From positions 9,466,283 to 9,530,282 of the forward strand of contig OZ316892.1 of NCBI GenBank assembly GCA_973895155.1: a stretch of 64,000 nucleotides of DNA, in the 5' to 3' direction. Below the pieces are notes generated by a model. It searched no databases, had not been told where the DNA came from, and saw only the letters and a list, made by a program, of their open reading frames with translations. Source of the DNA: Marsupella aquatica (lineage: Eukaryota; Plantae; Marchantiophyta). Within the stretch, counting starts at the first letter, position 1, and each line of letters starts with the position of its first letter. A program made the position numbers and the translations under genes. Shown in pieces: positions 1,801 through 59,400 of the stretch.

Positions 1801-3464
1801 GGCCTAAGCAGCGAATAGGTTTTAGGTGTGTGAAGTCCATAGATGGACTACATGTATGGACTATATATGAAATCAGACTAATGTTTTGCCCATTTGTGCA
1901 GTTGGTGAATGCAGCCTGTGAAAGGAAGATTGCAGGGGTTGTCACATCCTGTGAATGCTTATGAGGAGGCCCGAAAGCGGAACATAGAGCATAATGTCAG
2001 CATTATGCGTGATCTAGGACTGGGGCCAAACTGCATGCTGATGTGTGTGTTAAAATGTCTGTTGCAAATTTGATTCAGTAGATATATGGAGGTGTCAGGT
2101 TCATGTTCTGTTTTCATATTCCAGATTGGTCTCATACTAGTATGGAACCTGTACATAAGTACCATTATTATTGTGTTGTAGATTCTGCTTGCATGTATGT
2201 TTGATCTGCATTGGTGTATGTTGATGATTGCTTTGTTCCTTAGAGGCCCAACCACACATGTACAACGACAGAGAGAAAAGCCTGCATTGGTGAAAGGTAC
2301 TTCAACTGGAACATTGCCAAAGAGGAGGAGCTCTAGACTATCACAAGTTACCAAGGTGAACATGGCAGAGTCTGGTGATGATGGCTATGCCAGTGCTGGG
2401 TATGACACTGAGGATTCTGACATTGGAGGGTCAGAACCTGAGAGTGAACAGCAGGTAATGCTTGAACTTCATCATCCTAAACCCTAAATCCTTGTCCTTG
2501 TTTCAAAGTATTTGTTAATATGCCTACGTTGTCCATGATGTATGTATAGAAACAAAATCGTGGTCCTAAGAAGACTGGGCCTGGTGGAGGTGGGCTGGTG
2601 AGATGTTGGAAAGACCCAGACATTGGACTGTTATATGAAAGTGAGTGGATTGTACTGATATACCTTTTCAGTGTGTTTGGAAGTTGATATTCTACATTTT
2701 CCTAAAATTCACTGAAGTGCTTGGTGGTGTGTGTTTGTTTAGTGGTTCCATCAGCATCTGAAGGCAGATCAGGTCAATCTGACGTACTACATTCCAGAGG
2801 ATCTTCAAGTAATACAAATCACTACAACACTACCGACCCCTTTTGCGAACCCCGTCCCATCGCAACTAACAAAGGACCAAATTATGAAATTCCGGTGTTT
2901 GCGAAACGCTACGCATCGCAACCCTTTCGCATTCTTTGAAACCCATAGCTTCGCAATCGGACTTTCGCAACCCCTTCGCAACACCTTCGCACACTGCGAA
3001 ACTTATTTTATCGCACATAAATCACATTTATGCGATCTCGACAGACTCTTTATCGGTTTGCGACGCGCTTTGAACTATAACTTATTTTTGAAGCTGTTGT
3101 CTTGAAAATTCCGTTGCCATTCATATGGTATTGCATAACTGCGTCAGTCAGGGTGTCGCACAATTGCGGAACCAAAAGTATCGCAATGTTCCAATACTCA
3201 ATGTATGGCAAGTTTGCGATAGTATGGCGTTCGCATGTGTTTCGCAAGGATAGTTTGAGGGCTGGGTTTTGTATATTTGGGTTCATAATTGGGTTGGGGT
3301 CTTATTGCTCCACATGAAGATACCAAAGCAAAACTTTATATATGCCAAAAATCCCTGAATGTACAAAAATTAGGGTTTTCTAAAACCCTATGGGGTATCA
3401 AATACCAAGACACTGTCCTTTGACTAATCCATATGCCATATGGAGTGAACTACATCTGCATCCT

Positions 3465-5509
3465 CTAGAATGGAGCCCGCCTACTCCTCTTTGCTGGCCT
3501 CTTCCCCTTGTCCTTCTTGCTTTGGGCGGGACGAGCTGGACGGGAGGGGGGTGGTGGTGGTGGTGGCTGCTGCTCCTCCCCATCTGGCTCATCCTCATCA
3601 TCGTCATCATCCTCATCATCATCCTCCTGGTCTCCTGGTGTGCTAGGTGTGGCAACACTCCCTGCCCCTCTGGACCCACTCGTGGTGGCCCCGGTAGTGT
3701 CCCCATCATCAGCGCCGCTATCCTCCTCACTGCTATCCTCACTCCCCTCCTGCTCCTCCTTATCTTGCTTCCATGTCACAAGGTTAATTCGGGTTTAGGG
3801 TTAATAGGAAAAATGTATATACCTTATAAATGGAATGGGTGCGGGTTTAGAAAGGGTACTACAAATCACTCACACTAGCCAACTCTGCATCAACCAACTC
3901 AAAGAGATGTCTGGCCCCATGCTCTGCCCCTATCTCCATCTCCTTTGTTGTTATCTTGCGGCGGTACCTCTTATACTACCACAAAAAAATGAAACACCAA
4001 AACATAAGGGGCCCGGGTTAGTAACTAAGGGTACTTAAGCAAAAAAGGCATCCTAAAAAGGGTAAAAAGGGTACCCTAACCAGAAAAAAACCCCATTACC
4101 CTAACAAACATTTGTCACTCGACACTAAACGTTTTTCAAAATGAAACAAGCTTTGCGAAACTCCCACCTTCGCAAATTCAAATATATTTAAGTTTGCAAA
4201 ATAGACTGCGAATCGGATTGCTTCGCAATGGCTTCGCAAACCTTACGGGAAAAAGGTTATAATAGAGTTTGCGAAACAATTGCGAGGCAACCCGCTTCGC
4301 AATTGTTTCGCAAACTGTGCTTTTAAAAAAATCCGAGAAATGGCTAAGGCACGCAATGTGTCAGGGTGACCTAAAACGAAAGGGGAGGCCATAAGGGGTA
4401 AAGCAGAGGTCTGCGAGGGGCATTGTAGGCAAGCAAACAACAATTGAAGGCGAAGGAAAAGAAGCAGGGGAGGAGGGGAGAGGACTCACGAAGGTTGCTT
4501 TCAGGCCGGGAAGTCCACCTTGCTCCATCTTGTGTGTGGTCTTGGGGCGTTTGCTGACTCGGTCTGCTGCAAGGATGAACTTCTGGGGTGGTGTCCCCAC
4601 TTCATCCACGATGTGCTGCAGCTGAGAGACCTTCTCAGCCAATGCCTTGAGGTCTTGGTCTGACATCCCGGCCTGAAGTGCCTTGGCCTCCTTCTCCTTC
4701 CAGAATTGGAGGTCCTTGGCTGCTTTCAGCTGCACCTCGACCTTATAGAACGCGTTCCACACATCCTCTATGAATTGCACTGGCCTCCTCACGTTCCTGT
4801 ACTCCTGCAAGCTTGCCAGGTAGGCCCTCACCTTCCTCCTATCATGGTATCGTGCTTGAGACATTGAATTTGAAATTCTATCTGCAAGCCACTGGTCATC
4901 AATCTCTGCTCCATTTCTGAATGAATCTTTGACCTGAGTCATTACTTTCCTCTGCTCTGCTCTGCTTAGTTTCCCCCACTCAACACCTCGTGCATGGCTA
5001 GTCCTCACAACAAGCCTGATAGTGCTCTTTGCCCCAGTGTAGGCCAACTCAGTAGGAATGCCCTCAACCAAGGCAATCAATGGCAGCTTCTTCCTCTCTT
5101 CCTCCTTTTTCCGCTGCGCCTCACGTTGTGCTCGAATCTCATCTCGTTCCTCCCTTCTCCTCTTCTTTTCGAGGGCTGCAGGAGAGAGTACTCCTGCCTT
5201 AGCCCTCTCCTCCTTCTTTCGTTTCTTCTCTCTGGCCTTCTCCTCAGCTGCAGCCTTTGCCTCTTTCTCCCTCTGAGCCTGCCCTGCTGCAACCCCGGTT
5301 TGCAAAGCTTGCCCTAGAATTGCACTCAAAGAAGCAATCCCAGCTGGTGTACTCAAATCCAAATGGCTCAGCTGTGTGGCATTGAGATGCTCGGCCATCA
5401 AATTTGTCCATTGATTACTCTCCTCATTCCTGTTCCCTCCATTGCCATTGCCACTCCCACTCCCACTTGCCCCTGCCCCATCCCCTCCACGCCCTCCACT
5501 AGAATCCAT
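3465..5509 (-). CDS. TnpA-like/accessory protein of CACTA-A, multi-exon (about 5509-4490, 3975-3875, last exon ending at 3465)
   Basis: Gly-rich N-terminus, charged coiled coil and helical domain ending THKMEQGG (resembles the H..G..g motif of Ptta/Transposase_24 proteins). GT donor at 4489. Acidic last exon ending RRAPF*. Homologous to 40018-42060 and 47860-50873. Confidence 0.65.
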
Positions 5510-5979
5510 AGCTATCCAACACCAAGCGCGCGCAAGCTCTCCTCCTGCCCTCCCTCACTTCAAAAAACGTCGAATGGGCCTCGTAACCCGGCGGGAAGGT
5601 CCGAATGCCTAGACAAAACACATTTGCGACGCAGTCCGCATCGCAATTTGCGAATCAGCCCGCTTCGCAACTAGTATCTCAACTTTCCAAAACCAATGCG
5701 AAACCACACGCTTTGCAAAGCCTTCGCAAAGCTGCAGAGACGCGAAAAAACGCTCTCGGGCTCTGTTTTTCCGAAGCTGTTGCGAAACATTTTGCTTCGC
5801 AAATAATGTGACCAAATTCTGAAGCAGGTTGCGAAGCAGGTCGGTTCTCAATATCGTGGCAATTCCTGGTGAAATTTTTTTTCACATTCTTTCCCTCCTC
5901 CTTTTGTTTAGGCCATGTAAGTTATACTATGCCCTTTTGTGTAATTAAGAAATTCTGCCGTTTCAAATCCCGACGTTTG

Positions 5980-6445: not shown

Positions 6446-6875
6446 TAACAAAGGAGGAGGAGCTATGACAACTTGCAGGGTGCGGCACTTTTGCATGAAT
6501 TGATACTAGCTAATGCGTATGCATCGTGAGAGCCCGGGCATCTGGAGGTACGGACTAAAATAGATGGGTCTAGTTAGGCTTATTCATGTAATTAAAATTT
6601 TTGGTTCCCACTATCTATAAAGAGGACATGTATGTAAGGTGTTCGCTTTGTGTACTTGCAGCTTTTCTCATACTTCCAGATTCGGTTCATTATTTTAGAG
6701 CCACAAGACCTATTGGCACCGCTGAGCCTGGGTCTCAGAAAGGTATTTTTTAGTGTTCCTTTTGTGTTTGGTTTCATGTCATCATTACTTGAGAACTTAC
6801 ATTTGTCCAGCTTGATATTGTGATGTTATTTGGTAATAACCCCTAACTTGCAAATTATACATCTTTGTAGGGGCA

Positions 6876-7109
6876 ATGTCTTCATCTTCTGAGATCTCCA
6901 CCACAGATTCTTCCTCCTCCGATGAAGATATACCACCTCCTCCTCAACCTCACACGACTGCACCTCCTCCTCGTGGTCCACCCCGTCAGCTTTGCCAATG
7001 TGCCAAATGCGTGGGTCAGGTTTCCCAAAAGTCCTATATATGCACCCAACATATTGAGAGATATGGACGTTACGGACGTCATACAACAGGGGCTTCCTCA
7101 TCCCATGTG
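6876..7109 (+). CDS. Exon 1: Ser/Pro-rich leader plus Zn-ribbon-like transposase-associated domain (shared by SET and TnpD isoforms)
   Basis: CQCAKC...HIERYG resembles the CxCxxC...HL...G N-terminal domain of CACTA TnpD. 234 nt with phase-0 donor GTAAGT at 7110. Homologues at 51737-51970 (also 234 nt) and 33938-34171. Confidence 0.75.
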
Positions 7110-7210
7110 GTAAGTGTTTACGCCTTAGTTTCTACCCTATTTCCACATCGCAATGGTGAAGGTTTTTAATTTCACACCTCTTGTTGTTTGTTTTGGTTTG
7201 GGTGGAATAG

Positions 7211-7950
7211 GTATCTAGTAGGCCTAGACCTGCGGCATCAGCACCTTATGTCCCATCACAAGGTGTTCTAGATGCTATAGGCAATGCATTCTCACAAGCC
7301 TTGGGTCCAGCAACAGCCCCCTCCAGTCCTAGGGCAGTTGGGGGTGAGCCTGTTGTCCCAAGAGGGAGAAAGCGTTCCAAGAGACGGCCCCGAGGGGATA
7401 CTGATTTGTACAAGGCAGTGGTTACCGGTAGGTGGGGTGATTGTGAGTTTACTGGCAGATGTGTTCCTATCATCAAGGACTGGGATCCCCAGACTCTTGG
7501 TTTGCCACAAGAGCTTTCCTATGGTGAGGAGGTAGAGGTTTGGGGAAGACGTTGGGTTATCAAACCTTCCACACTTGGGGATAGACATGGCTATGGAGTT
7601 TTTGCTTGTGAAGACATCATTGTGGATACCGAGAGTGGTAGTGGTGGACGTGGTCGAGAAGGACCTACGTTGTTTCCTTATGGTGGACCCATCTACAAGA
7701 GAAGACATTGGAACATGATCCTTGCACAACATCCTGAGTGGAAGACTTATGCCTTGGAGTTAGATACTTTTGATGGAAACACTAGGAGGTATAGTGAGCA
7801 GCGGGTGATAGATGGGGACCCCATACGAACTGGGAATATAGCTGGTTTCATAAACAGTACTGTGGGGACTCGCCCCAAGCGTAGGCAAAATTGTGAGTGG
7901 GTTTTCATTGAGGGTCCTCCACCAGCCCCTTATGGCCATACACATGGCGT
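7211..7950 (+). pseudogene. SET-domain exon of CACTA-A (C-terminally truncated)
   Basis: Motifs GYGVFACEDI, LFPYGG and IDGDPIRTGNIAGFINST...NCEW. Acceptor AG at 7209-7210 is in frame with exon 1. Lacks the IRAGQELFCDY end seen in CACTA-C. Confidence 0.8.
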
Positions 7951-10900
7951 TTGGCCACATTTTGTATTTACACCAGTACCGATATTATTTCATGTTTGCA
8001 CACCCCCATATATTCTTCTACATGTTGTAACTATTTGCTTTGTAACTTTCAATTGTTTGCATTGTTTTTAGAATGTGCGACCCTCTCAAAATATGTTACC
8101 GCGAAGATTGAGAGTAGCATATCGGGAAATGGGTATGCTGGAAGAAGGACAAGGCTCTGAGTCACATTCCTCATCAAGTGACAGTGGAAGCAACAACCCT
8201 GATCGCAATGTACCCAGAACATATGAACAGGTTATTGATGACCAAGATAGAGCCATGGATGATTTTATGGTTGATTGGTTTGGTGTTGACGTCCTTGGTG
8301 ATGATGCTGAGGTGTCTGCTGATCAAGGAGGTCATGTGCCCCCCAATGATCCACGACCAAGACATACCCCTGAGGGACAGCGCCAATGGGAGGAAGCAGA
8401 GGAACATGCCCGAACTCCTATCTATGAGGGTGCTCGTTTGAGTCGTCTTTCTACTATCTTGGGGTTGATGAATCTACAAGCCAAACACAAGGCAAGCAAT
8501 GCCTTGTTATCTTATATGTTTGCACTTTGCCATGACCTTATGTTACCTTCTGGCAATGTGTTGCCAGGAACTTGGAAGGAGGCCAAGCGTGTTCTCTCAT
8601 CAATTGGCATGGAATATCATATCATTCATGCATGTGTGAATGATTGCATGTTATTTCATGGGGCCGATGAGAAGAAGACACAGTGTACTGAATGTCATGA
8701 GCCACGGTAAGACCCCAACATGATTACAAAGAAGGTGCCAAGAAAAGTTGTTCGTTGGTTTCCCATCATTCCTCGATTGTTGCACATGTACAGGTGTTCT
8801 GATTTGGCAGAGTTGATGGTATGGCATAAGACTCATCGATCAGAGCCTGGTGTTATGCGGTTGCCAATTGACTCTCCTGCAGTCAAACATATTGAGGAAA
8901 CATGGCCAGACTTTGCACATGATCCTCGTCATGTGAGGTTGGGATTGGCATCTGATGGGGTTAGTCCTCATGCCCTTGGAGGCAAGGGAAGACCTACATC
9001 AGTTTGGCCTGTGGTTGTGATGAATTACAACCTTCCACCATGGCTATCCATGAAGAAGGGGTTCCTCTTGCTGTCTTTGATTATTCCAGGTCCAAAAAAG
9101 GTGAAGAACTTTGACACTTATTTGGCACTATTGAATTGAGAACTCCAAAAACTGTGGGGTGGAGTGTGGGCATATGATGGCAGGAAAAATGCAGGAGGCA
9201 TTCCACGTGTATTTAAATTGAGAAGGGTAGTTTGTTGGACAATGCATGACTATCCTGGTAAGATGACTTTTTGACCATATGCCACCCTTCTTTGATATGC
9301 TCTTTAATATACTTGTTTGTCATGTGACAACCCTAACATTTAGTCTGGTTTTATTTTTGGTGTAACCAGGATTTGGCTTTGTCTCTGGATTGCAAACTCA
9401 AGGGTACAAAGCTTGCTCCACCTGTGGTCCACAATTGCAAGATATGGCAATTTGGTCCCCATGGCTTAGGAAGATTGTTTACATTGGGCATACAAAGTTT
9501 CTTCCGATGGGGCATGAGATGAGGTCTGACCCACTTTTATTTTCCTCCTTTGACATGCCCCTTGGTGATATGCGGGAAATTCCGGAACCAACAACTTTTG
9601 GGCATTGGAAGTCACTAGCTGATAGGGTGGCAGACCCTGATGATCCCCTCACCTTTGATGGTACTGGGTTGACGAGGTGGAGTATACTAGCCAGTTTGCC
9701 CTATTGGTCAGAGTTGAAGATCCGCCATCTTTTAGACCCCATGCACATAGAGGGAAATGTGGGGAAGGCGTTGATAGCTCATTTTTATGGGGAGAAGGAC
9801 ACTAACTTCAGGGAGGCATGTGAAGAGTTGGAAATGCATCCAGATGTATGGGTACAAGTTGATCCTGCCACAGGTTTGGAACATCGTCCTTCTGCTCCTT
9901 GGGTGCTTAGTGTTGGCCAAAGATGTGAATTCCGGAATCGTATAGGGGAGATGCGGTTTCCTACAGGCTATGGTGCCAATTTGAGGAAAGCTTTTGGGAT
10001 GGAGGACAATCACAAATGGCCACGGTATCTCAAGACACATGACTATCACCGCTTATTGCAGCATATATTGCCAGTGGCAATTATAGGGTTGGGGACCAAA
10101 GAAGTGCAAGATGCCATTTGGTCATTGGGTCGTTTGTTGAGATGGATATGCTCAAAGGAGATATATGTGGAAGAGATTCCTGGAATGGAGGTATTGGCTG
10201 CTGAGGTGGTTTGCAAGTTGGAGAAGGCCCTCCCTCCTTCCTTCTTTGATTGTCAGGTTCATTTACTTGTGCATCTTGTGAGGGAGGTTGCCATTGCTGG
10301 TCCAGTTCATTGTCGATGGATGTACTGGCTTGAGCGTTACATGTCAGTCTTGAAAGCTTATGTACGTAACCGTGCACGAGTGGAGGGAAGCATAGCTACA
10401 GGATACTTGGCTGCAGAGAGCATGTTTTATTCTAGTAACATCTTGGCCACCATTGATCGGACTTTACCACGTACTTGGATGGAGGAGAGGCAAGAGGAGG
10501 AGGACCGTTTAACAGGAGCAAACAAAACAAGCATGCTTACATCAACAGAGTGGACACAGTTGAATACATTCATGTTGAGTAATAGCAATGTCATGGATGA
10601 ATGGAGAGAGTTTTATGACAATGCCAAAAGAATGAGTCAAAGGGCAAGGATTTTTCCTAAGTTGCATGAGTTTATGAAGGAAAAGTTGGTTGAGTTGGAT
10701 GGCATTTTGGCACAAGGAGGAGATGTCTCACAGTTTCCTACTATGACAAATGACATTCGGACCATTGTTCATGGCCCTTTGAGAGTGGTAACATCCAAGA
10801 CGGCCATGTGGACCCAAGGGAGACACTTCAGGTTTCACTAGTTCCTAACCTTGTTTTCCATATTCATGTACTACTACTTAAGATATAGTAATCATTTTAC

Positions 10901-13628
10901 TTAAGATAAGTGTGTTTTTCTCTTTTGGTATGAAAGGTTCCTCATAACATGATTAGTGTTTTTTGTGTAGTAGTAACAATATATGGGTCTTGTTAATTTC
11001 AGGATTTCTTCCCTAGATGAGAAGAGGGCTCGTACTTTTGATTGTGGAGTTCAAGGGCAGTTTTGTCAGGACTCCCGGAGTAGCCGACATGACAGGAACA
11101 TTGTTCGTGATGTTGTGCCACACTATGGGAAGATAGAGGAGATTTTGGTGGTCTCATATGACAACCAATCTAAGTTTGAGGAGTATGTCTTCAAGTGCAA
11201 GTGGTTCAAAGTGAACCTTGTTGGTAATAATCGCACTGTACTCCAAGATGAGAGTGGGTTTACACGGTTGAGGATGAGGTGTTTACAAAAGGCAGTAAAT
11301 AGCAAACAACAAAATATAATAGGAACTGGTAACAGCAAAATTTCCTGTTTTGGGAGCACATTTCTCCTGGTATTGTGGCAAAATTAAAAAAATCCGTTCC
11401 TAAAATACTGATAATTATGCGATGCCAAATATTAGCGCCGGGAGTCTACAGGAAAAATAATCACAAACGCATCATGCCGAATACTAGCGCCGAGCGTTAA
11501 AACCCAAAATAATGACACATTAATCGCCCAAACATGCCGAATACTAGAGCCGGCCGCTTCCAATTCTTTGTGCAGAAAATCACGAGAACCTAGGATTGAT
11601 GTTCAGGCTGAGATCCAAGTAGAAACCAAACATTAATAATAGTCTAAGTTCAATATCAAAGCACAGAGATGTAGGACTTAACCAAGGTATCTGAGTCATA
11701 ACTTCTAAAGGGAAATTGAAAGAAAAGAAACCCGAGATTTTTTATTTAAGTGAAACATATTGTCCTCGGTGTACAAATATTTCTACTTAGGAACACTAAA
11801 GTTTCCAGAACAATTGTAACTAGCGCCAGGCGCTAACACTCCCGGTGGGTGCCTCCTCGTACAATGTCCTATCTCGAAGAGTGACATTCATCATCAATCC
11901 CAGAGTCCTGACAATCTGGATCTTGGTGGAAACCATCTAATTGGAAGTTGACATATGCTCTCGTGGGCCGTTGATAAACTGGCCTTCCATGGAATCGAGA
12001 AGGAGAAAAATGAGAGAAATGGACTTTGAAAGAAACAATAGTATGTCAATAAGGGGCTTGGATTTATCGTTATAGGTCCTCTTGTCGGTACTAGTCTTTG
12101 AGTGAAAGCCAAATGACACTAGGGCGGAAACGACAAATATCAAACGGAAGCTTCCGACGTGTTTTTTGGGTAGCGGCGGGCGCCAATTAACCAAGCCGAG
12201 GAACCCACACAAAGGACGGTACTCAAGACCACATTAACCATTGAATGGAAGGGGCAACATCCCTAAAACTCAATTCATTTTTAATAAATTCAATAGCGCC
12301 CGACACTAACAAAAACCAAGGGCATACTCGTACAGTTGGGAGGAAGTTTGACCTGAGAGAGGAGAAAATTGCTACCCTTCAGAGTCAGATTCTGAGCTCT
12401 CATTCTGGGAGCTATGAGATCTGTCAGTCGACTCTGCCTCATCATCAATATACTTTCTTCTAGAAACATCATCTACGTAGGGGTTCCTCATGAACTTCCT
12501 ATCTACTCCCCTAAGAAGCCTAAGTCCTTTTGTTTCCCAGTAGAGCGTTCTAAATTTCTCTACCTTCCTCGCGACGTTCTCAGCGTATGATGGCAACACA
12601 AACGGCTTCTCGGGAGTGATGATTACATTTCGAGCCACTTTCCTCCGGAGTTGAAACCGTTTTCTTTGGTTCCATTCTGACCTGCTCAAAAGAGAAGCAG
12701 AAGAGAAAGAGGAAGTAAGTACTTAACCGATAGAACTGGCGGAATTGAAGATTAGCCAACAATTGAAAGGATAAAGGAGCTTACGAGAGACGAAAATTAC
12801 TCGGAAGACTCTTCGCTGTCCTCCGTTGACCCATCATGTCGGGTTTCCTCTTTCCCGCCGTCATTGACATCCTCAGGAACATCATCTTCTGGCGTCCCAT
12901 CATCTTCGTCCGAATCAAAGTTGAGGACAGATCTAAGTCTATCTTTCTTTTTTCGTCCGGTTATTTGAGGAGGGGGAGGTTGTGTCTCCAAAGGTTTGGG
13001 AGAAATGAGGTCCAAAAAAATCCTCGAAGTGGTCTCAACAAACTCCCGACGATTTTCTAACCCGATGACAAAATGGCCCGAGTAATCCCCAGCAATGAAC
13101 GTACTACCTGAGCCAACGGTCCAATCAATTACAATATCCTTAGGTATTGTAAAGAGTTCAAGGACAGTTTGCATAAAACCAACCGGCAATCGGGAATTCC
13201 CAGTAAAATGGAGTTCAGGACAATGATCTTCCTTCAAAGATTGTAGCCCAATAAGGTTCGAGATTGAAGGATCTTCAGCGCTAGATAATGGCTTGAATCT
13301 TGGATCCTTTGGGACCTTTCCTTTAAAAGAAAATCGACAAAATATGTCCAGTCTAAGAGTGAAGACCTGCAAAAGTTGACGAACCAACTGGATTTCAAAA
13401 ATCTTTTACTCATGAGAGAAGACCTCCTAAGAAAGAAAGAGTAGCGTCGGGCGCTAGTATAGCTATACTGAGAGAGAACATTTACCTGGACATCTGTCTT
13501 GGATCTGTACATTGGGACAGACATGAAAACGTTGTGCGTATTGATGCACATGAACTTCTTGGATTGCTGACATGCAGAAATGACCTGGGAAATCTGATCG
13601 TGGTCATCCGAGTATAAGATAGCGAGCA

Positions 13629-14103
13629 TGTTGGGTATTTACTCTTACGTCTAGGTTAGGTATGACGTGGTTGGTACAACAACGTGGGTTGGTACAACTA
13701 CGTGGTTAGGTACAACTACGTGATTAGGTACAACTATGTGGTTAGGTACAACTACGTGATTAGGTACAACTATGTGGTTAGGTACAACTACGTGATTAGG
13801 TACAACTATATGGTTAGGTACAACTATGTGGTTAGGTACAACTAAGTTGCACACTATATCATAAGAGGCATGTGTGCTTGGAGAGGTAGAACCAAGGCTC
13901 ATTGTTATGGAGCCACTTGAGAGATAGGGAGAGCTTACACTGTGGAGACTCGGTATAGCCGACGGGCTTAGAGTTCAGTAAAGCTCTCTTGTGTGTTCCC
14001 GTGGACGTAGCCTCAAGGAGGTGAACCACGTATCTCTTGTGTCGACTATTGTGCGTTGGATGGTTCATGGGCTTGCCGTTGCGATCGTCGTCTATGCTCA
14101 ACA
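13629..14103 (+). repeat. 5' LTR with internal 18-bp tandem array
   Basis: TGTTGGG...CTCAACA; near-identical to 18956-19430; (TGGTTAGGTACAACTAYG)n at about 13667-13845. Confidence 0.97.
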
Positions 14104-14105
14104 AT

Positions 14106-14117
14106 TGGTATCAGAGC
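14106..14117 (+). promoter_or_regulatory. Primer binding site for initiator tRNA-Met
   Basis: TGGTATCAGAGC 2 nt after the 5' LTR. Confidence 0.95.
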
Positions 14118-14555
14118 ATGCTTGGGAGGTGACGTGTGTTCGTGACGGGATTTCATGATGGTTTTTCCAGCGTTGAGTGTTGGTGGATTATCCAGAGTTC
14201 CATCGCATGGAACTTGGAGTTTATGGGCTCAACGGATAGATCAGGGCAAGAGCTTTCTAACGGTGTGAAGAAATCGTTGAACGGAGCTCGTGGTGCAGAG
14301 AGATCTAAGTTTTCGTCGTTCTGGATTTTGTGAAGAAAGTTGGCAATCGACTCGGAGGGAGAAGCGTCAAGTGTTTTGACTCAACGGAGAGATTGAGGCA
14401 AGACGATTGTTTTTGAGTCCGGGATTGGCTCTTTGATGCAAAGAGGAAGGCTAAGCAAAATCAATTACCTTGTTGGACTTGGTGACGACACCAAGTGCAA
14501 TTGATCAACATTCGTTGTTGACAAGGGGCAGAGAGAGGAGCAGGAGGAAGAGCAC

Positions 14556-15491
14556 GTGACACCGATACCATCACCGGTGCGGCGTGTGGTGGAGGAAGCA
14601 GTACTACTACCGGAGCTCACGGTAAAGAAGAAGATGGGGACTTTCAAGCTTGGGGGACCCAAGTATGAAGTGACAAAGTATGATGGGCGCTCTGACTACT
14701 TGCTATGGGAGAAGCAAGTGAAGGGAGTGCTTTATGCGTCAGGGATGGGCCAACTGCTGAGCCCTCGTGAAGACGATGTTGATGAGAAACAATGGGACCG
14801 CATGCAGGAGCAGGGAGTGTGGTGTGTTACACTCTATCTCATGCCTCCCATCATCAAGCAGTTAGGTGCACATAAGGATTGCATGTCCTTGTTTGCGGAA
14901 TTGCAGAGCAAGTATCACCGCAAGGAGTTGTCGAACCGGCTCTACACTTCCTACAAACTGATGAGTTTCAGGATGAAGGAATCTGGTACGAAGTTGCAAG
15001 ACCATGTGGATGCTTTCAACGACATGGTCGTTGACTTGGAAAACCTTGGGGAGACTTTGAATGATGAGACGAAGGCTCTGCAGCTTCTTAGTTCATTGCC
15101 TCCACCTTACCAGTCCCTATCACGAGTGTTGTTGCATCGTGATAGGGATACCATTTCATACAATGACGTGGTAAGTTCTCTGCTTAGTGATGATCTTCAG
15201 CAGAAGATGCACATCACGTCACAGCCTTCATCATCTGGAGTTGCCCTCAATGTTAACCGTGGGAGGAGTATGCAGCGACCAACTGGGGACCGTAGAACCC
15301 AGTTTAGATCTAAATCCAGATCTAAGTCCAAGGGTAAATCCCCTCAGAGGAGGCAGGTGACATGTTGGAAGTGCAACCAAGTTGGACACTTCAAGCGAGA
15401 CTGTAAGGGAAAGGCAGCGGAAACTTCATCGGCAAATGTGGCTAGGGCTGATGGAGAAGCTGATTTACTCAATGATGAGTATGTTTTATGA
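14556..15491 (+). CDS. gag: Copia Gag (likely start ATG at 14635)
   Basis: KYDGRSDYLLW motif, UBN2-like core and zinc knuckle CWKCNQVGHFKRDC. Confidence 0.93.
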   Translation: MTPIPSPVRRVVEEAVLLPELTVKKKMGTFKLGGPKYEVTKYDGRSDYLLWEKQVKGVLYASGMGQLLSPREDDVDEKQWDRMQEQGVWCVTLYLMPPIIKQLGAHKDCMSLFAELQSKYHRKELSNRLYTSYKLMSFRMKESGTKLQDHVDAFNDMVVDLENLGETLNDETKALQLLSSLPPPYQSLSRVLLHRDRDTISYNDVVSSLLSDDLQQKMHITSQPSSSGVALNVNRGRSMQRPTGDRRTQFRSKSRSKSKGKSPQRRQVTCWKCNQVGHFKRDCKGKAAETSSANVARADGEADLLNDEYVL

Positions 15492-18400
15492 AGCCGGGGG
15501 TATGCCCTGTGCACGTCATCTAGGAGAGCAGATGATGTGTGGATTCTTGATTGTGCTTGCTCTTTTCATATTTGTTACATTCGTGAGTTTTTCAGTTCTT
15601 ACTCTGTTTCAAACGGTTCAGTTCTGATGGGAAATGATCACTCCTGTCAAATTGAGGGAATTGGGTCTGTGAAGATTCAAATGTTTGATGGCGCTGTGCG
15701 CACAGTGTCCGGAGTCAGGTATGTACCTGGCATGCGTAAGAATCTGATTTCACTCGGTGTGTTGGATTCAAATGGTCATCAATGGAGCGTTATTGATGGT
15801 GAACTTCAAGTCAGGTCGGGAGAGACAGTGATTTTGAAGGGGAGTAGACAAAAGAATTTGTATGTGTTACAGGGCAATACTGTATGTGGAGAGGCCAATG
15901 TAACCAAGTCTCACGAGGAGATGACTCAACTGTGGCATTCACGGCTAGGCCACATGAGTGAGAAGGGTTTGGCTATCTTACGGAAGAATGGACTCATTTC
16001 TGATTTGCAATCTTGTAAATTAGAGTTTTGTGAGCATTGCATTCTTGGAAAGCAACATCGTCGTGCTTTTGGTGTTGGAACTCATCGTTCCAAAGCGGTT
16101 CTTGAGTACATACATAGTGACGTGTGGGGTCCATCCCCGACTCCCTCACACTCTGGAAAGTTGTACTATGTATCATTTATTGATGATTACTCAAGATTTG
16201 TGTGGATTTATTTCATGACGCATAAGTCTGATGTCTTGTCCATTTTTAAGAAGTGGAAGGCCCAGGTGGAGAATCAGACTGGAAACACGATCAAGTGTTT
16301 GGATACAAGGGTGAAGAGTCTGAGGTCAGACAACGGCGGGGAGTACACTTCAATGGAATTTGAAGAGTACTGTTCAGAACAGGGGATAACTCGCCATCTC
16401 ACCATAGTTTATACTCCGCAGCAGAATGGTGTCGCTGAGAGGCTCAATCGGACACTGTTGGAGCGGTCACGGAGTATGTTGAGCCAATCAGGTTTACCAC
16501 AAGAATTTTGGGCAGAAGCTGTCAATACCGCAGCTTATTTGGTAAATCTTTCTCCTTCTAGTGCTATCAATTTCAAAACGCCGTTTGAGATGCGCTATAA
16601 GCGGCAAGCAGACTATCATGGCTTGGTAATTTTTGGAAGTGATGCATATGCTCTCACACCAAAGCAGAATAGGACCAAGTTGGATCCTACCTCCAGGAAA
16701 TGTGTTTTTCTTGGGTACCAGAGTGGTGTGAAAGCCTATAGGCTATGGGATCCTATTGCTTGTAAGCTCGTTGTCAGTAGGGATGTTTCCTTCAATGAAT
16801 CCAGATTATTGAAGGAGGGGGAGAATACTCAGGTCTCCCGTACTGACAAAGGAAAATCTCCTATCCCGGATCTCGTTGAGGGGGAGATTGGTTATGAGGT
16901 GCATGACCGGAGAGAAGGAGTTGCTCCAATTATGGAGTTGGTTCCTATGCCAGAGGAACCAGAGGAGTTTGTTGATGCTGGTGAGCAACAAGTGGATGCT
17001 GTTGAGCTTCAAATTGTACCAGCACACGCAGATCAACCGGAGTCATCGGCTAGAAGAACATCTGGTCGCACTGTACGCGCTCCATCAAGGTATGGACAGT
17101 GGGTTGATTCATCTCAACTGCAAGAGGATGATTTTACAGCTGATGATGAGGGTGATGCGTTAATTTTGGAAGAAGGAGAACCTTCTTCATTTCATGAGGC
17201 AAGTGCTTCAAAAGAGAAGCAGAAGTGGACTGCAGCAATGCAAACGGAGATGCAGTCACTAAAGGACAACAAAACTTGGGAGCTTGTTAAGCTGCCTAAG
17301 GGTCATCAAGTGGTGGACAACAAGTGGATTTACAAGCTGAAGAATAATTCCATAGGAGGTGGATCGAAGGTCTACAAGGCTAGATTGGTAGCAAAGGGAT
17401 TCACACAAGAGAAAGGTGTGGATTACAATGAGGTCTTCTCACCAGTTGCTAAGTACTCTACAATACGACTATTGTGTGTACTTGTTGTAATGTTTGGTCT
17501 GCTCCTAGATCAGATGGATGTTGTCACAGCTTTCCTCTATGGCACATTGGAAGAGGTGATCTTCATGAGACAACCGCTAGGTTTTGTGAAGAGAGGACAG
17601 GAGGAATTGGTTTGCAGATTGCTGAAATCCTTGTATGGGTTGAAGCAGTCACGAAGACAGTGGAACAAGCGGTTTGACGATTGGATTCGGTCACAAGGTT
17701 TTCACAGAAGTGTATTTGACCCTTGTGTGTATTTGAAACCGGTGAAGAATGTTGTCTTTGGGTTCATTGTTTTAGTACTTTATGTGGATGACATGCTAAT
17801 TGCAGCCAAGGATAGGTCTGAGATTGTTAAGCTCAAGGCACTGCTTAGTGCAGAGTTTAAGATGAAGGACTTAGGGCCAGCTAAGAGGATTTTGGGTATG
17901 GAGATCACTAGGGACTTGGAGGCTGGCAAGCTATGGTTGACGCAGAGCAGTTATGCGAGGAAGGTAATTGCAAGGTTCAACATGGAGAATAGCAAGCCAG
18001 TAAGTACCCCGTTGGCTCCACACTTCAAGTTATCATCAACGTTCTGTCCTACGGATGACACAGAGAAGGGGTTGATGTCAAAGGTTCCATATGACAAGGC
18101 AGTGGGGAGTCTCATGTATTTGATGACTTGCACTAGACCTGATCTTGCCATGGCTATGGGCAAGGTGAGCAGGTACATGTCGAATCCAGGGAAGGTACAC
18201 TGGGAAGCAGTGAAGTGGATTATCAGGTACTTGAAGGGTACCGTGGATCATGGTCTTTTATTTGATGTGAATGCAAAGAATGCTAGATCATTGATTGGCT
18301 ATATAGATTCTGACTATGGACAAGATTTGGACCGAAGGAGATCAACAACAGGATACGTGTTCACACTTGGCGGTGGATGCATAAGTTGGAGGTCTACTTT

Positions 18401-18764: not shown

Positions 18765-18944
18765 AGTTTTCTTAAACATTCATTGTAATTACTGATATAT
18801 GCTCTTCCTCATTCCTATGTATTAGGCTACGGCTTAGTTCTGGTTTGCTCTAGTTAGAGAGGGAAACCGGTTTGGTTTCTGTCCAGAACTTCCCGCTGAG
18901 GGATCATATACATTGGCAGTATTACTCTCCCCTAGACCAGAGTC

Positions 18945-18954
18945 AAGGGGAAGA
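18945..18954 (+). promoter_or_regulatory. Polypurine tract
   Basis: AAGGGGAAGA just before the 3' LTR. Confidence 0.85.
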
Positions 18955-18955
18955 T

Positions 18956-33937: not shown

Positions 33938-34171
33938 CATACGGGATGAAGAAGCTCCCGGTGTAAGACCTTGATGTTGGCCATATCGAGCAATGTGCTC
34001 CGCACATACATATGACTTTTGGACAACCATCCCCACACATTTTTTACAACCACAAAGTTGGCGTGGTGGACCACTAGGTCGACGTACGGTTGGTTCAGGC
34101 TGAGGAGGAGGACGACTTTCTTCATCGGAAGAGGAATCTGATGTGGTGGAAGTTGTAGAGGATGAAGACAT
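33938..34171 (-). CDS. Exon 1 (Zn-ribbon-like) of the SET/TnpD gene of CACTA-B
   Basis: MSSSSTTSTTSDSSSDEE...CGCKKC...HIARYG, homologous to 6876-7109. Confidence 0.8.
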
Positions 34172-50800: not shown

Positions 50801-50873
50801 CCCCAGCCCCTCCATCGCTCCCCTCCATAGCCATTTGCTCTTCGCTGCCGTGCGCCACGTGCTTGTTTTTCAC
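47860..50873 (-). CDS. TnpA-like/accessory protein of CACTA-C (exons about 50834-49726, 49245-49142, 49044-47860)
   Basis: Same layout as in CACTA-A/B (Gly-rich start, coiled coil, THRMGQGG, small middle exon); expanded Gly/Ser-rich repeat last exon ending RHAPF*. Confidence 0.7.
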
Positions 50874-51736: not shown

Positions 51737-51970
51737 ATGTCTTCTTCCGAGAGTTCAGAGTCGGATTTTGACTCAACCTCTTCATCTTCTGAGGGGGACA
51801 TTCCTCCCCCCCCCCCTCCAAGGCTTCAATGTCCTCCTCCTCTAGGACCTATTCCATGTTGGTGTGCCCGATGTAAAGGCATGGTGGTTCGTCAAGCCTG
51901 GGAAGCCATTGAGCATATTGAGAACTATGGCAGACACGAGGGCAATTTACCAGGATATTCTACTCGCGAG
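51737..51970 (+). CDS. Exon 1 (Zn-ribbon-like) of the SET/TnpD gene of CACTA-C
   Basis: MSSSESS...CWCARC...HIENYG; phase-0 donor GTATGC at 51971. Confidence 0.78.
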
Positions 51971-52068: not shown

Positions 52069-52985
52069 GTGCCTCGTAGGACCCCTCCTCCATTGGTCTC
52101 TAATGACTTATGGGTAAATACGCTTTTGGCTGGTGCAAGAGAGTTGCTTGCATCATCATCAGCTCCCTCTCCATCTAGCCCCCCCGTGTTCAGCCAGAGA
52201 GTGTAGCAGTTCCATCTAGGGTTGGACGCACCCGAGCACGTTCCCAGAGACAACGTCGCAGTTATGAACCCTTGCCAGGCACTCATGAGATTGAGGAGCA
52301 AGTTGTAGGCCGTACTCTTAGAGTGCCACCAGGAGAGGACTATGTGGAAGTGGAAGGGAGGTTGGGGTTGTCATATGTCACCGAGAAGGCATTGACAGTG
52401 TTGAAGGATTTCTCGTCTGATAGATTCAAAATACCCCCTGGCCTAACCACTGATACCCCTATCCACATATGGGGTCACCAATGGATAGTGAAGGCGTCTT
52501 CCCTTGGCCCTGACATAGGATTTGGGGTGTTTGCCTTGGAGGACATTGTGGTCCCGCCCAAGCCGTGGCCCCGAGGTTATGATGGTGAGCACCTATTTCC
52601 ATACATTGGTCCTGTGTATACTTCAAAAGGTTGGAACATTCTATTGCGCCAACACCCATCGTGGGGTGTCTATGCATTGCAAATGGATTCTGATCCAGAT
52701 GAGCTCATACGGAGGCCTTGGCATTCTCGGATGATTGATGGCGACCCTGTTCGCTCCGATAATATAGCTGGGTACATCAATAGTACTCGTGGTAGAGGGA
52801 GAGGACTTAGGCCTAATGTAGAGTGGATTCAGATATTTGGTCCACCTAGAGAGCCTTACTATGTAAAACATATGGATGATCATGTCATGACTGTAGCCAT
52901 TACAACCATTAGGGCTGGCCAGGAGTTGTTTTGTGACTATGAGTGGGATAGGCCCAAGAAAGCATTGCTTTCTCGCCCCATGTAG
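52069..52985 (+). CDS. SET-domain (lysine methyltransferase-like) exon of CACTA-C
   Basis: Full set of SET motifs: GFGVFALEDI, LFPYIG, IDGDP...NIAGYINST...RPN, IRAGQELFCDY. One frameshift in a C7 run at 52179-52185, upstream of the domain. Confidence 0.85.
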
Positions 52986-53227: not shown

Positions 53228-56200
53228 AATGCATATGTTCAACCAGATATGGGGGTATTATCACGAGCAATGCGGCAACACCTTGTTGAGGCCATGGGTG
53301 ATTGGCGTAGGGCTCAAGCATCAGAGAATGAAGATGCCCCTCCTGAGCATGTGTCTAATGCCACCGAAGATAGACTTGAGGAGGAGAGGGCCATGGATGA
53401 TCTTATGCACCAGTTCTATGACGTGGAGGATGGTGACCATGATATGGGTGATGCATTTGACACCAATGCACATCCTCATGGTGGCAATCCTTCACAAGGT
53501 TCTTCCTCTAGACAATGGGAGGAAGCTCGTGACCATGCGCAAACATGAATTTTTGAGGGGTCACAACTATCTCGGCTCTCAGGAATAATGTTATTGTTGA
53601 ACTTGCAGCAAAGACATGGAGCAAGCAATCTCCTTCTTGATGATCTCTTCAGGACCTTGCATAGTCGTATTTTGCCAGAAGGGAACTGCTTGCCTAGTTC
53701 ATGGAAAGCGGCAAAAAAGGTGTTGAAATCCATAGGCCTCAAATACGAAGTCATACATGCTTGTGTGAATGATTGTGTTCTGTTCAGGGGCGAACACAAA
53801 GATGCCACTACATGTCCTACATGTGACCAACCGAGGTATCGAGAGGACATGCTGACTGGAAAAGTAGCACAGAAGGTCATGAGGTATTTTCCTCTTATCC
53901 CCAGATTACGGCACCAGTACCGATGTGCAGAGTTGGCTGAGTATATGGTGTGGCATTCCAAGAACCGGTCAGATATGAGTTCAGATCGGCCAACCATGCG
54001 TATGATGGTGGACTCACTTGCAAGTAGGTTTGTGGAGGACCGATGGGGTGACTTCAAGACAGACCCACGTCATGTACGACTAGGTTTGGCATCAGATGGG
54101 ATCAGCCCCTTTGCATTGGCCGGGAAGGCCCAACCATACTCAGTTTGGCCAGTAGTCCTTACAAATTACAACATCCCTCCATGGATGGCCATGAAGAAAG
54201 GTCATTTGATGCTCTCAATGATTATCCCAGGCCCCAAGCAAGTAAAAAAGATTGATGTTTACTTGCAACCATTGTTGGAGGAGCTTCAACAACTATGGAG
54301 GGGAGTGGATTGCTATGATGGTCGAGTGCTGACGGGTGGTTTACCTCGTGAATTTAAATTAAAAGCCATCGTTATGTGGACCATACATGATCTTCCTGGT
54401 ATGTTAAAATATACCTTCCCCAATATTATGCATGGTTTTTTATGGTAGATAATACACTATAGGATAATGTTATATAAAAAAGTTTGTCTGGCTATTGTTT
54501 AATGTATTGATTGTGTGTGTTGTAGGATTTGGATATATCTCTGGGTTGCAGACATCAGGATACCGAGCCTGCCCAACTTGTGGTCCTGATTTGGAGGGAG
54601 TGGCACGCCCTAAGTCTACCACCCTACGGAAGATAGTTTACATTGGTCACACAAAGTATCTCCCCCCAGAGCATGAATGGAGGTGTGACCCATTCTTATA
54701 TGACACGGATGATGGCCAACCAGACACACGCCCTCAACCAGTGCCAAGGGATCCACACTATTGGAAGGAGGTATGGGATAGAGTGACAGACCCAGATGAT
54801 CCCTTACCATTGGCCTGGTGTGGCATGACTCATTTTTCTGCATTAATGTCAAAGCTGCCATATTGGGCTGAGATGCCAATTAACCATTTGTTTGACCCTA
54901 TGCATATTGAGGGGAACGTTGGGAGGTCATTGATTCGCCATCTATACGGAGAGAAAGACAACAACTGGAGAGAGAGTTGTGAGGAGATGGGGATGCATGG
55001 TCCTCATGGTTTTTGGCCATCTATGGATCCCCCTAATGGCCCCCTTACTATTCACCCTCCTTGGGTATTGACCAGAGGTGAGCGGATTGAGTTCCGCAAT
55101 CGTATAGGGTCAATGAGGTTTCCTACGGGCTACGGGGCCAATCTGCGCAAGGCATTTGGGGGACCAGACTGTCCACGTTGGCCAGCTTTCTTGAAGACCC
55201 ATGATTACCATCGTCTACTACAACATGTCATTCCAGTGGCCATCATTGGATTGGGTAGTGAGGATCTTCGTGATGCCCTGTGGTCATTAGGTAAGCTCTT
55301 GAGGTGGGTGTGTCAAAAAGAGGTGAATGAGGATGAGATTGCAGCTATGGACCTGTTTGGAGTGGAGGTATTGTGCAAGTTGGAGAGGGCACTCCCTCCT
55401 TCATTCTTTGATGGCCAAGTTCACTTCCTCCTACACCTAGTGCGTGAGGTTGGCATTGCAGGGCCGGTACATTGTCGTTGGATGTACTAGGTAGAGCGGT
55501 TTATGGGAGTGATGAAGTCATATGTGTCAAATCGTGCGAGAGTGGAAGGTAGCATCGCTGAGCGTCATCTTGGAGCAGAGAGCATGTTTTATTGTACAAA
55601 CATTGTAGCTACACTTGATCCCAGTGCACCAAGGGGGTGGATAGACGAGGCATCAAGGGAAGCCGACTTTGAAGATGACCGTCTTACAGGGGCAAAGGGA
55701 GAACGACTTTTGGGCTCAGCTGAGCGCCTTCAAGTCACTACATTTATGTTGTATAACTTGCCTGAGATTGCGGGAGATTGGACAAATTTTTATGAGGAGG
55801 AAAAGGCAAATAGTCATCGGCCACACATCTTCCCCAAGTTTGTCCCATACATGAGGGCAAAGTTGACCGAGATTGATGCCTTGTTGGAGCAAGGGGAGAG
55901 CGTGTCAGACTTCCATTTGGTTACAGACAGCCTTCGCACCTTGGTTCATGGACCATTACTCACGGTGACAACTCGGACCGCCATGTGGTCAAAGGGAAGG
56001 CATTTTTGTGTGCAACGGCTTGATGATAAGAGGGCAGCTACACAGGATTGTGGGGTCATGGGTTGGTTCACCCAAGATTCACAAAGTAGCACATCTGATA
56101 GGAATCCAATACGCTCTACAGTGGCCCACTATGGCAAGATTGAAGAGATATTGACAGTGCATTATCATGCACACACCACTTTGGAGGAGGTGGTGTTGAA

Positions 56201-56483
56201 GTGCAAATGGTTTTGGATGAACCTTGTTGGCCATAACCGAACTTGCAAAGAGGATGCTTGTGGGTTCACACGGTTGAAGACAGGTACAAATAGTGTCATT
56301 AGCTCAACTTGGAGAACCTCTGATCCATTTGCATTCCCCCACCATCTTGAGCAGGCCTTCTATCTTCCGTATCCCGATGATCCTGAGTGGTCCATTGTCA
56401 TGACTTATATTCCACAATCACGATCCATCATCCAGGAGCAACCCAATGTGGTTGTAGTTGAAGATTTGGACCCCGTGCCTTGA
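53228..56483 (+). pseudogene. CACTA TnpD/Tnp2 transposase of CACTA-C (exons 53228-54398 and 54526-56483)
   Basis: Motifs IHACVNDC, RLGLASDG, NIPPW, DPMHIEGN, KTHDYH, GPVHCRWMY and a DUF4216-like end; single-codon stops at 53546 and 55488. Confidence 0.94.
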
Positions 56484-59400
56484 GGTCCTTGCTAGCTAGT
56501 GTAACTTGGGATTAATCGCGTAGGACCCCTCCATATGTTTATTTTTACCGGCATTATATATATCATTGTTGTATTTCATGTTCCCTCTACTATGAAAGGG
56601 ACCAGATTTCTTAATAAAAATATGAGTATTTGTTTTCCACACCATATCCGATACAATGAACATCGCATAATTGTCAGAAATATCTTACCTTAATTCTGAA
56701 ACCTTGTCCGATTCAGTCTGCATCGGACCCCTCTTAACAGTTATCGGATACTTGTCCGATACATTTCCGTTACTAATCTTATTGGAAGACATCCGATTCT
56801 AAATCTAACGGAAAGAAGGACCGTTTACATTTGCATCGGAAGGTTAACATGCGATTCAAAAAGAATGGCAAATTGCGTTACTATTGAAGTCGGACAATTC
56901 CGATGCATTTCCGATTTGTTTAGTATCGGACGGCTGAGCTGTTGCGATATCGGAGCATCGGAAAAATGCTGAAAATGTACTAGTGTGTGGAAGGGTTCAT
57001 CTGTAACTCAGTGCACGCATTTTGGGCAAGTTGGAAACCTTCTTGTAGAGCAATCACTATTTCTTCATTTGTTTCAATCCCTGCATAGTCTATTTGATCT
57101 GCTACAATAGGAATCCCTATCGGGATTGTAGTGAGCTTCATCCAAATGTTTTCATGTTTTTTGTGGCTCTTCCCTGCACCCATCATTCCTTCAGCCAGAT
57201 CCATTGCAGCCAATCGATTTCGATTGGTAGCACATTCTACTAACTCAGCCAGGTCATAACTTTGTTCATGACCATTCATACCTCCTACAGCAGAGAAAAA
57301 CTGCTCACAAACATCTGACCCAGTCAAATGCAATGGCACTGGAAGATGTCGAAAATTGTCCCTAAATTGGATTACCAATAGGACCACAAAATGAACTGAC
57401 ATCTGAATGTCAAGGAAGCTTTGCATGGGAATGCAATTTTTTGTGAAACTGATTGGTTGTGTATTCCCTCCCATTGAATGGTTTCCATGAAAGCACCATT
57501 GACGCCATAGTCTAAAGAAGAACCCAACCTTCCCACAATGGACAATCCTCTGTCGCAAACTCAGACTAGTGTTCAGAAATATGTCAATGTAGTCTGCACA
57601 TATCCTAGTGTAAACTTCTGTTCCAAGAGTCTGTTCAACTCTTGCATCACCATGTTGACGAAGCATCCGTAAGGAGGACTGTACTTTGCGGCTACATAGT
57701 CGTTGTGCACTAGCCCAATTTTGCCTATCTTTCCTTGACTTGTCCTCTTCATTCAAGCCATGATCACTATTCAGGTACAATTTGTAACAGGTTATGATGT
57801 GACTGAGGTTCGCCATTTCTGCTCCTAATTTCAAAATACGAGAAGTGGAATCCAATGGGTTCACTAGCTTCTTCCCATTATGAATAAAGTCTTGATCATG
57901 CAACCCATATGCATGGATCAATGGTCCAACAATGGTCATAGAGTGGGTCAATTTCCAAGCTTCCCACCTCAGGTCCTGCCTTGGCCCCGGTATCCCACTT
58001 CCAGAGTAGTCTTCCAACATAAGCTTTCTCCTCCGTGCATCCCCATCGCTAGCATGACCCAATAAGGGTCCCGCTGACTCTAGGCAATGTGTAGTCCACA
58101 GTGACGCTAGGCTATTCCATTGTCGCCTGACCCATGGAGCATCAAACTTGTTACATGTGCCAATCCCCATGATGCATAATCGAGGAAACCCAGCAACAAG
58201 GGCATTTACTATCAAACATCTTGCCTGGTGCGCTACAACATAATTGTCAAAGGCATCTGCAATGTTGTTGAAGCCAACTTCTCCTTCCCCCACTAGGATC
58301 TCCAAGCCAACACTACACTCATGGTCAATTTTTGTCCCACAAAATCCAAGAAGGGTGTCATGTTTGGGCAACCATCTGCAATCAATAGCAGGTGGGCTCT
58401 TCATTAGTTGTGTTCAATTTTTGTGTGTACCACAAAACAATCTTGAACAAAAAGAATAACCAGAGCAAGAGGAGTAAATGAGTAGTCACCTCACAGTCCT
58501 CTTCACACAAGTCTCATCCTCTGCCAAAAAGCATGGAATGGGTCCTTGTATATTTAATCGAGCTTTCAGTTTGGAAAATATTTCCGCAACAAACTGAAAT
58601 TGCTCTGCATGAATTCCAGCACGAAACACTGCCATGCCTCTTCGGTCCCGTTGAAGGGTGTTGATGGTAGGACCAATTCCATTGGTTGCAAGACAATCAA
58701 CAACTCGCCTTCCACCATGTAAAAATAGTGTTTGACAAAGGAGCTTGGTTCCCGGCTTAAATCGATATCCTGTCTTTTCCCTATTGATGTTTTGTGCTAT
58801 GTCAGACAACATATCCCATAGAGCTCCTCTCCCACCAAAGGCACCTCGTTTGTGTGCCAATATTATTGAGTGACAAAATTTCAACAAAATTGCTTTGTTT
58901 GGTTCCTCATAGTGAAGACACGCTTCACTAATATTGGGGACTAGAGCCTGTGCCATGAGCAACTTGTGACTCAAGATTCTTTGCAATTTTCGCTCTCTCA
59001 AAACTTGGTTCCTGTAACTTTTAGCCTGATACTGGACCTCTGGAATAGTCAAGTAATCTAAGCGCCTACCTTTCCCAGTTGTTCTAGAACCTCTTTTCTC
59101 AAGAGCTTTGTACTCCCTGTAAACCCTGAGTCGAAAATCCTGCTCTGTTTTTATGCTAAAACACTGCGAGCAGGTCAAGTCTATAAACCCACCACCAAGT
59201 TCTGATATTCGTCTACAATCTTTGTGTCTAAATAAACCAGAAATCACACAACTTTCCTGAGTTATCAAACACCACACCTCTGCCCTCACTATGGGCTCTG
59301 CATACCAGTTGCCATCTAATTTAAGCTGGTCATTTAAGATCTCCTTGATAGGCCTGGTATCTGAACCATATTTCACCACATCACGCCATAGACCCCAACA

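Follow-up and report, generated by a model that had tools for sequence, protein, structure and literature searches.

In SETMAR of primates, a domesticated host gene that encodes a SET domain is joined to a mariner transposase copy that is itself dead. In the CACTA transposon En/Spm of maize, alternative splicing of a single transcription unit yields the tnpA and tnpD mRNAs, and the open reading frame (ORF) of the transposase lies in intron 1 of tnpA (PMC2613891). SET genes are also carried by HarbingerS and by Phytophthora MuDR elements (PMC12730594), and a further source places them on Helitrons, as captures, and on red-algal Plavaka elements of the EnSpm superfamily, as PAG2 (bioRxiv 10.1101/2025.02.11.637652). 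Here, we analyze a 64,000-nucleotide stretch of DNA from the liverwort Marsupella aquatica (assembly GCA_973895155.1, contig OZ316892.1, positions 9,466,283 to 9,530,282; hereafter the window), in which three related transposon copies, A, B, and C, are found. We read them as decayed members of a CACTA (En/Spm-type) transposon family of bryophytes, whose SET-domain exon sits between a short zinc (Zn)-motif coding exon and the exons of the TnpD transposase, and we predict two alternative splices for the Zn-motif exon, a joint reading to which we assign a probability of roughly 0.55.

The bryophyte element belongs to the same superfamily as En/Spm and resembles it in its CACTA termini, of which one end was identified in each copy, its Transposase_21-type TnpD, the placement of a large ORF within an intron of the other product's transcript, and, as we propose, a shared 5' exon. 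The two differ in that the second En/Spm product is a DNA-binding protein, whereas the bryophyte element holds a SET exon in the transposase's first coding intron, where it would share a coding Zn-motif exon with the transposase; moreover, the splicing has been shown for En/Spm but is predicted from sequence here. With HarbingerS, MuDR, Helitron, and Plavaka elements, the last from the same superfamily, it has in common that a DNA transposon carries a gene for a SET domain with a potential effect on chromatin. The SET genes of those elements are described as separate accessory genes, with PAG2 also bearing an N6-adenine DNA methylase domain, whereas the bryophyte cargo, in land plants, is a single SET exon that lies within the transposase gene and is linked to a Zn-motif exon of transposase type. 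SETMAR is alike in that splicing at a single locus links a DNA transposase with a SET domain; unlike SETMAR, the bryophyte SET exon is part of a mobile family with many copies and has a stop codon of its own. Transposon-borne SET genes and the alternative splicing of En/Spm are already known, and the nesting of a SET exon in a plant CACTA transposase gene appears to be the new part. An earlier, preliminary description of this stretch had taken a SET exon within En/Spm-type alternative splicing to be unreported, and our literature search, which returned no SET exon in a plant CACTA element, agrees. The present analysis supplies liverwort-like copies and cross-lineage counts of splice sites.

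Exon layout of the three copies

Copy A, on the forward strand, displays the complete order of exons. Its first coding exon (6871..7109), read directly, follows an acceptor AG at 6869-6870 and opens with an ATG at 6876, from which 78 codons run without a stop and encode the motif CxCxxC..H..G, before a phase-0 donor GTAAGT at 7110. Across a predicted intron of 101 nt (7110..7210), the acceptor aatAG/G opens the SET exon (7211..8071), whose phase-0 frame remains open to a TAG at 8069-8071. This TAG serves as the stop of the SET exon and the acceptor of TnpD in one: the first TnpD exon, recognized by its Transposase_21 match, begins at ttttAG/AAT (8072..9257), has an ATG at codon 8 (8093), and ends at a donor G/GTAAGA at 9258. 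Further TnpD coding sequence, comprising the C-terminal part of Transposase_21 and DUF4218, extends over 9370..11384 (ORFs 9366-10838 and 10977-11384) as judged by Pfam and by comparison.

The same arrangement recurs in copy C, also on the forward strand, where a 234-nt exon 1 (51737..51970) starts with an ATG at 51737 and ends at the phase-0 donor GTATGC at 51971, followed by a SET exon (52069..52985) with its acceptor at 52069 and a Pfam-recognized SET domain that is complete and includes ELFCDYEW. The first TnpD exon (53228..54398) opens at gttAG/AAT, has its ATG at codon 8 (53249), and ends at the donor G/GTATGT at 54399; Transposase_21, DUF4218, and DUF4216 matches continue over 54525..56480. 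The preliminary description had given the 234-nt exon with its phase-0 donor in both copies, together with the phase-0 acceptors opening the SET and TnpD exons at 7211 and 8072 in copy A and at 52069 and 53228 in copy C; every one of these positions, and the start of copy C that they imply, agrees with our reading. Copy B, on the reverse strand, retains a 234-nt exon 1 (33938..34171) with donor GTGAGT, after which neither SET nor TnpD follows. Its intron 1 is interrupted at about 33886, on the same strand, by the end of another CACTA-type element (CACTAGTAGAAAACAATG, then many AATGAC-like subterminal repeats).

Upstream of the coding exon, the sequence GGGTCTCA..AG/GTATT is conserved in the alignment of all three copies. 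From this alignment and the nucleotide similarity between A and B at 6648-7115, we predict a non-coding leader exon in copy A (6648..6742, forward strand), with an undefined start and a donor AAG/GTATT whose GT lies at 6743. The exon that the preliminary description called exon 1, a name we retain, is therefore the first coding exon but probably the second exon of the transcript.

Copies A and C are both dead. In copy A, homology to SET proteins ends near 7942, so that the final approximately 30 codons including ELFxxY are absent, whereas complete relatives end in ...DELFTHYEW; the first TnpD exon additionally contains two in-frame stops (TAA 8708-8710 and TGA 9137-9139). Other genomic copies, visible as loose ends in contigs from sequencing runs, extend beyond the position of 7942 with different sequence. 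In copy C, the phase-0 frame from the SET acceptor stops at 52204 while the SET ORF (52179-52982) lies in another frame, which places a frameshift at or near the C-run 52178-52186, and an in-frame TGA at 53546-53548 interrupts the first TnpD exon. In the SET exon of copy A, a consensus-like GTGAGT (7893-7898; phase 1) also falls among the conserved codons for N-C-E-W, and the gene model P0014 leaves its SET exon at the homologous place.

Class, termini, and divergence

The transposase families in the downstream exons, Transposase_21, DUF4218, and DUF4216, identify a CACTA TnpD-type DDE transposase. Pfam matches were obtained to PF02992 (1.2e-27) and PF13960 (4.8e-33) for TnpD of copy A, and to PF02992 (7.7e-40), PF13960, and PF13952 for that of copy C. 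The 5' terminus of copy A (CACTACAACACTA; 2820..2832, forward strand) is followed by TTCGCAA/TCGCAA subterminal repeats, and the same terminus is present in copy B at 42856-42844. Copy C has its 3' terminus at 57121..57133 (CACTACAATCCCG, read on the minus strand). Termini of the form CACTACAA thus stand at 2820 (5' end of A), 42856 (one end of B), and 57133 (3' end of C), with repeats of the TTCGCAA/TCGCAA motif within 200 nt of those of A and B. A search of the window for terminus pairs did not find the 3' end of copy A and gave, for the 5' end of copy C, a candidate at 43387 with 2 mismatches; in no copy were both termini identified, and no 3-bp target-site duplication was read.

Each of the three copies also contains a divergently oriented ORF of about 400 codons upstream of the leader, with a Gly/Ser-rich N-terminus and 35-55% identity between copies. 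That of copy A (4364..5554, reverse strand) has 397 codons, and its counterparts, at 55% and 36% identity, lie at 40006-41094 (forward; conserved over 40081-41094) in copy B and 49656-50915 (reverse) in copy C. It has no match in Pfam or the ESM Atlas, and is possibly the second gene of the element, a candidate counterpart of TnpA.

The proteins of copies A and C are just 41-60% identical, yet the exon length, both phases, and both acceptors are kept, a degree of divergence at which these shared features cannot stem from a recent duplication. Together with the recurrence of the layout in metagenome loci, described below, this agreement goes beyond chance. Copy A is nearer to moss-type metagenome copies (L041, L035, and L054; synonymous divergence, dS, about 1-1.5) than to copy C of the same window, against which synonymous sites are saturated. 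This nearness reflects either very old sublineages or movement of the element between bryophyte lineages.

Predicted joining of the Zn-motif exon to the SET exon

In both A and C, the first in-frame ATG of the SET exon is codon 169, and an in-frame TAG stands directly upstream of the exon. With no earlier start and a stop immediately before it, the exon 1 to SET junction is close to forced within the window. This junction recurs among database proteins: we collected 35 proteins with exon 1, mostly gene predictions, from Calypogeia fissa, several Sphagnum species, and Riccia, of which 24 run on into SET (for example, P0015, ...SSSRM/VSSRPRH). The gene models of Calypogeia, Sphagnum, and Riccia use the same junction, one of these proteins (P0008) represents 360 member sequences, and P0036, one ORF of 423 aa from a Logan contig of 2141 bp, carries the Zn motif and the SET domain in the same frame. 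The remainder comprise three unspliced read-throughs on short contigs (P0003, P0005, and P0010), two proteins that, as we read them, enter the start of the SET exon (P0013 and P0111), and six Riccia models that end in or after the linker. The joining of exon 1 to the SET exon is accordingly strongly implied by these reading frames and models.

Conservation of splice sites and selection

A scan of metagenome contigs recovered 65 loci of a moss-type family, all of them genomic, that is, unspliced with the intron present, and the layout was found again in all 65 confirmed loci. The exon 1 donor GT is present in every one of 49 moss-like loci. The preliminary description had proposed checking the conservation of both acceptors among copies, and both proved to be well kept: the SET acceptor is AG in 22 of 26 moss-like loci (AA in the other four), and each of the nine loci that reach TnpD has the acceptor catAG/AAT followed by seven codons and the ATG. 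The intron between exon 1 and SET measures 116, 117, or 118 nt in 25/26 moss-like loci and 101 nt in one, its length thus not being held to a multiple of three.

The seven codons ahead of the TnpD ATG encode N-V-R-P-S-Q-N in copy A, against N-I-R-P-S-E-D in the moss loci; the codons for R and P differ synonymously at their third positions, and one moss-like locus has an in-frame 3-nt deletion within this stretch. An in-frame TAG lies directly upstream of the seven codons in all copies compared, and the spacer from the SET stop to the TnpD acceptor is about 150 nt in the moss loci. When copy A is compared with the moss copies, exon 1 has a ratio of nonsynonymous to synonymous substitution rates (dN/dS) of 0.18, SET one of 0.26, and the TnpD exon one of 0.16; between two moss subfamilies, dN/dS is 0.36 for SET, and between A and C the synonymous sites are saturated. 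Purifying selection has acted on all three parts.

The Zn motif and the SET domain

The pattern C-x-C-x-x-C ... H ... G is present in exon 1 of A, B, and C (alignment A1). The Transposase-associated domain PF13963 (Transpos_assoc), which usually sits at the N-terminus of TnpD, was the top family for 6 of 12 exon-1 peptides, with a best E-value of 0.0016. Residues 39-67 of exon 1 in copy B matched positions 36-64 of the 74-position profile (E 0.0077; 16.8 bits, where the cut-off is 27.7), and P0083 scored 14.9 bits against the same cut-off. Exon 1 of A and of C alone gave no relevant Pfam match, no usable match to exon 1 was found in the ESM Atlas, and Pfam detected no PF13963 in the downstream TnpD exons. 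Exon 1 thus appears to resemble this domain weakly, in its CxCxxC..H core. The motif that the preliminary description placed normally at the TnpD N-terminus is thus present in all three copies, with a likeness to PF13963 that stays below the cut-off.

The SET ORF of copy C matches Pfam SET (PF00856) at 28.0 bits against a gathering threshold of 22.4, whereas the SET exon of copy A, being truncated, has no such match; relatives score a borderline 17.7-22.9 bits. For the intact relative P0015, the AlphaFold model has a block-mean predicted local distance difference test (pLDDT) score mostly of about 90 or more over residues 150-350, and a Foldseek search with this model retrieved SET8, LegAS4, MLL1, and ATXR5 at E about 1e-7 and probability 1.0, with 16-24% identity, while sequence comparison against the PDB gave no match at E up to 1. 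The predicted structure of P0015 thus shows a SET fold. The family alignment (A3) keeps G-x-G, F-P-Y-x-G, and E-L-x-x-x-Y. The transposon family shares with the lysine methyltransferases SET8/SETD8, MLL1, ATXR5, and LegAS4 the predicted fold and, in this alignment, the GxG and Y-x-G motifs and the C-terminal ELxxxY, while differing from them through its low identity and a Ser in place of the His of the NH motif.

Proposed splicing to TnpD and alternative explanations

Joining of exon 1 to TnpD, with the SET exon skipped, is plausible and is inferred from the matching phases, the conserved acceptor and upstream codons, the weak likeness of exon 1 to PF13963, and a TnpD that would otherwise lack a Zn motif. 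In three Riccia gene models (P0123, P0126, and P0127), moreover, an acceptor is placed 5 codons ahead of the homologous TnpD Met. The preliminary description had one shared exon giving either a Zn-SET protein or a Zn-transposase; its SET branch is strongly implied by the results above, but its TnpD branch is a conjecture, as are the single promoter and the co-targeting or heterodimerization of the two products that it suggested. Several observations weigh against the two-way splicing or its proposed products. None of the 35 exon-1 proteins joins exon 1 directly to TnpD. Four of them do reach TnpD (P0014, P0123, P0126, and P0127), but these are gene predictions, and some of the SET exon precedes TnpD in each; P0014, counted among the 24 above, fuses part of the SET domain to TnpD, and the other three, which belong to the six Riccia models, enter TnpD after the linker. 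Codon 8 of the TnpD exon is an ATG in A, C, and 9/9 moss loci, and the Riccia models have one at the corresponding position, which fits an independent translation start equally well. Four sequencing runs that cover the stretch yielded unspliced DNA contigs of high repeat depth, without the joint 7109>7211 or 7109>8072, and the copies A and C are both broken. As to the products, not one of the 12 exon-1 peptides reaches the gathering cut-off of PF13963, and where canonical SET domains have the NHS or NH(S)xxPN motif, alignment A3 reads GYINS, with a nearly invariant S296 at the position of the canonical His, which renders methyltransferase activity uncertain.

The codon-8 ATG and the missing direct join are also the main support for a two-gene arrangement, in which an accessory gene consists of two exons, exon 1 and SET, TnpD starts from its codon-8 ATG through a promoter in the spacer or by another route, and exon 1 never enters the transposase. 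The conserved stop that ends the SET exon is in keeping with it, as are three contig ORF calls (P0019-P0021) that begin at the codon-8 ATG. Against it stand the short spacer of the moss loci and the TAG/AAT acceptor with its seven in-frame codons before the ATG, which moss and liverwort-like copies alike have kept despite synonymous differences; it would also give a TnpD devoid of the N-terminal Zn motif that exon 1 weakly resembles. We regard two genes as unlikely, while treating them as the foremost competitor of a shared, alternatively spliced Zn-motif exon.

The SET exon might instead be a captured fragment of a host gene with no role for the element, comparable to Pack-type capture, its splice sites being mere leftovers. 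The death of both window copies, a Pfam SET similarity that is borderline (21.7-28 bits), and the loss of the NH-motif His would suit such a capture. Against it, the place, phase, and open frame of the exon are kept in liverwort-like, Calypogeia, Riccia, and Sphagnum copies, and its dN/dS is 0.26-0.36. In addition, searching 1.84 billion proteins with the SET exon at E up to 0.001 returned just 87 representatives; of the 26 inspected, 9 contain sequence of exon 1 or TnpD, no family of host paralogues was conspicuous among the 26, and 9 of 10 matches checked by name were Riccia sorocarpa gene models. A passive host capture is on this evidence improbable. Finally, a single Zn-SET-TnpD fusion as the sole product, suggested by gene models that join SET and TnpD sequence (P0014, P0061, P0070, P0090, and P0104), is rejected as scarcely credible, because the SET exon ends with a stop codon in C, the moss loci, and the complete gene models, and because the junctions of those models are mutually inconsistent, the four of five with a readable SET exit leaving at different internal points and all five missing part of SET, while the GTGAGT inside copy A's SET exon, being in phase 1, would not join the phase-0 TnpD acceptor in frame.

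Other features of the window

Outside the three copies, a Copia-type long terminal repeat (LTR) retrotransposon occupies 13629-19430. Its 475-bp LTRs share 99.6% identity and its gag and pol ORFs (Retrotran_gag_2, rve, and RVT_2) are open; it looks like a young insertion. Further C-terminal fragments of TnpD were recovered at 1-709, which is 67% identical to 26395-27106, and at 27698-27895, and a weak DUF4216 match at 1269-1961. Palindromic TAGCGCC..GGCGCTA repeats are found at 807-1038 and 11481-13456, and comparison of the window with itself revealed tandem repeats at 34606-35042, 30904-31136, and 48161-48549. Long ORFs without a Pfam match lie at 35949-38393 (forward; 815 codons), 56983-58413 (reverse; 477 codons), and 58489-60711 (reverse; 741 codons).

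Implications

Under the proposed two-way splicing, a single promoter with a non-coding leader exon would drive the unit. The Zn-motif exon spliced to the SET exon would give a Zn-SET protein of roughly 350 residues, ending at the SET exon's own stop, while the same exon, skipping SET, would likely be spliced to TnpD and give a transposase with the usual N-terminal Zn motif. If the Zn-SET product were an active methyltransferase, the element might, for example, mark or protect its own chromatin by means of a targeting domain common to both products. Extended to the whole family, this would mean that an old CACTA lineage common to mosses and liverworts alternatively splices the Zn-motif targeting exon of its transposase onto a SET lysine methyltransferase, sending a chromatin writer to the DNA that the transposase recognizes; taken in full, this is a doubtful proposition, which we put forward as speculation.

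Bryophyte transposons are silenced partly through histone methylation, and, to our knowledge, transposons with their own chromatin enzymes are rare, with none mechanistically worked out in land plants. Should the SET protein be inactive, or the splice absent, the finding would reduce to a conserved accessory gene. The layout itself predicts a transposase and a SET enzyme with an identical Zn-motif N-terminus, encoded by one exon. If this is true, a mobile element would in nature be directing a histone-type methyltransferase to itself, and the En/Spm superfamily would have a second way of diversifying its products.

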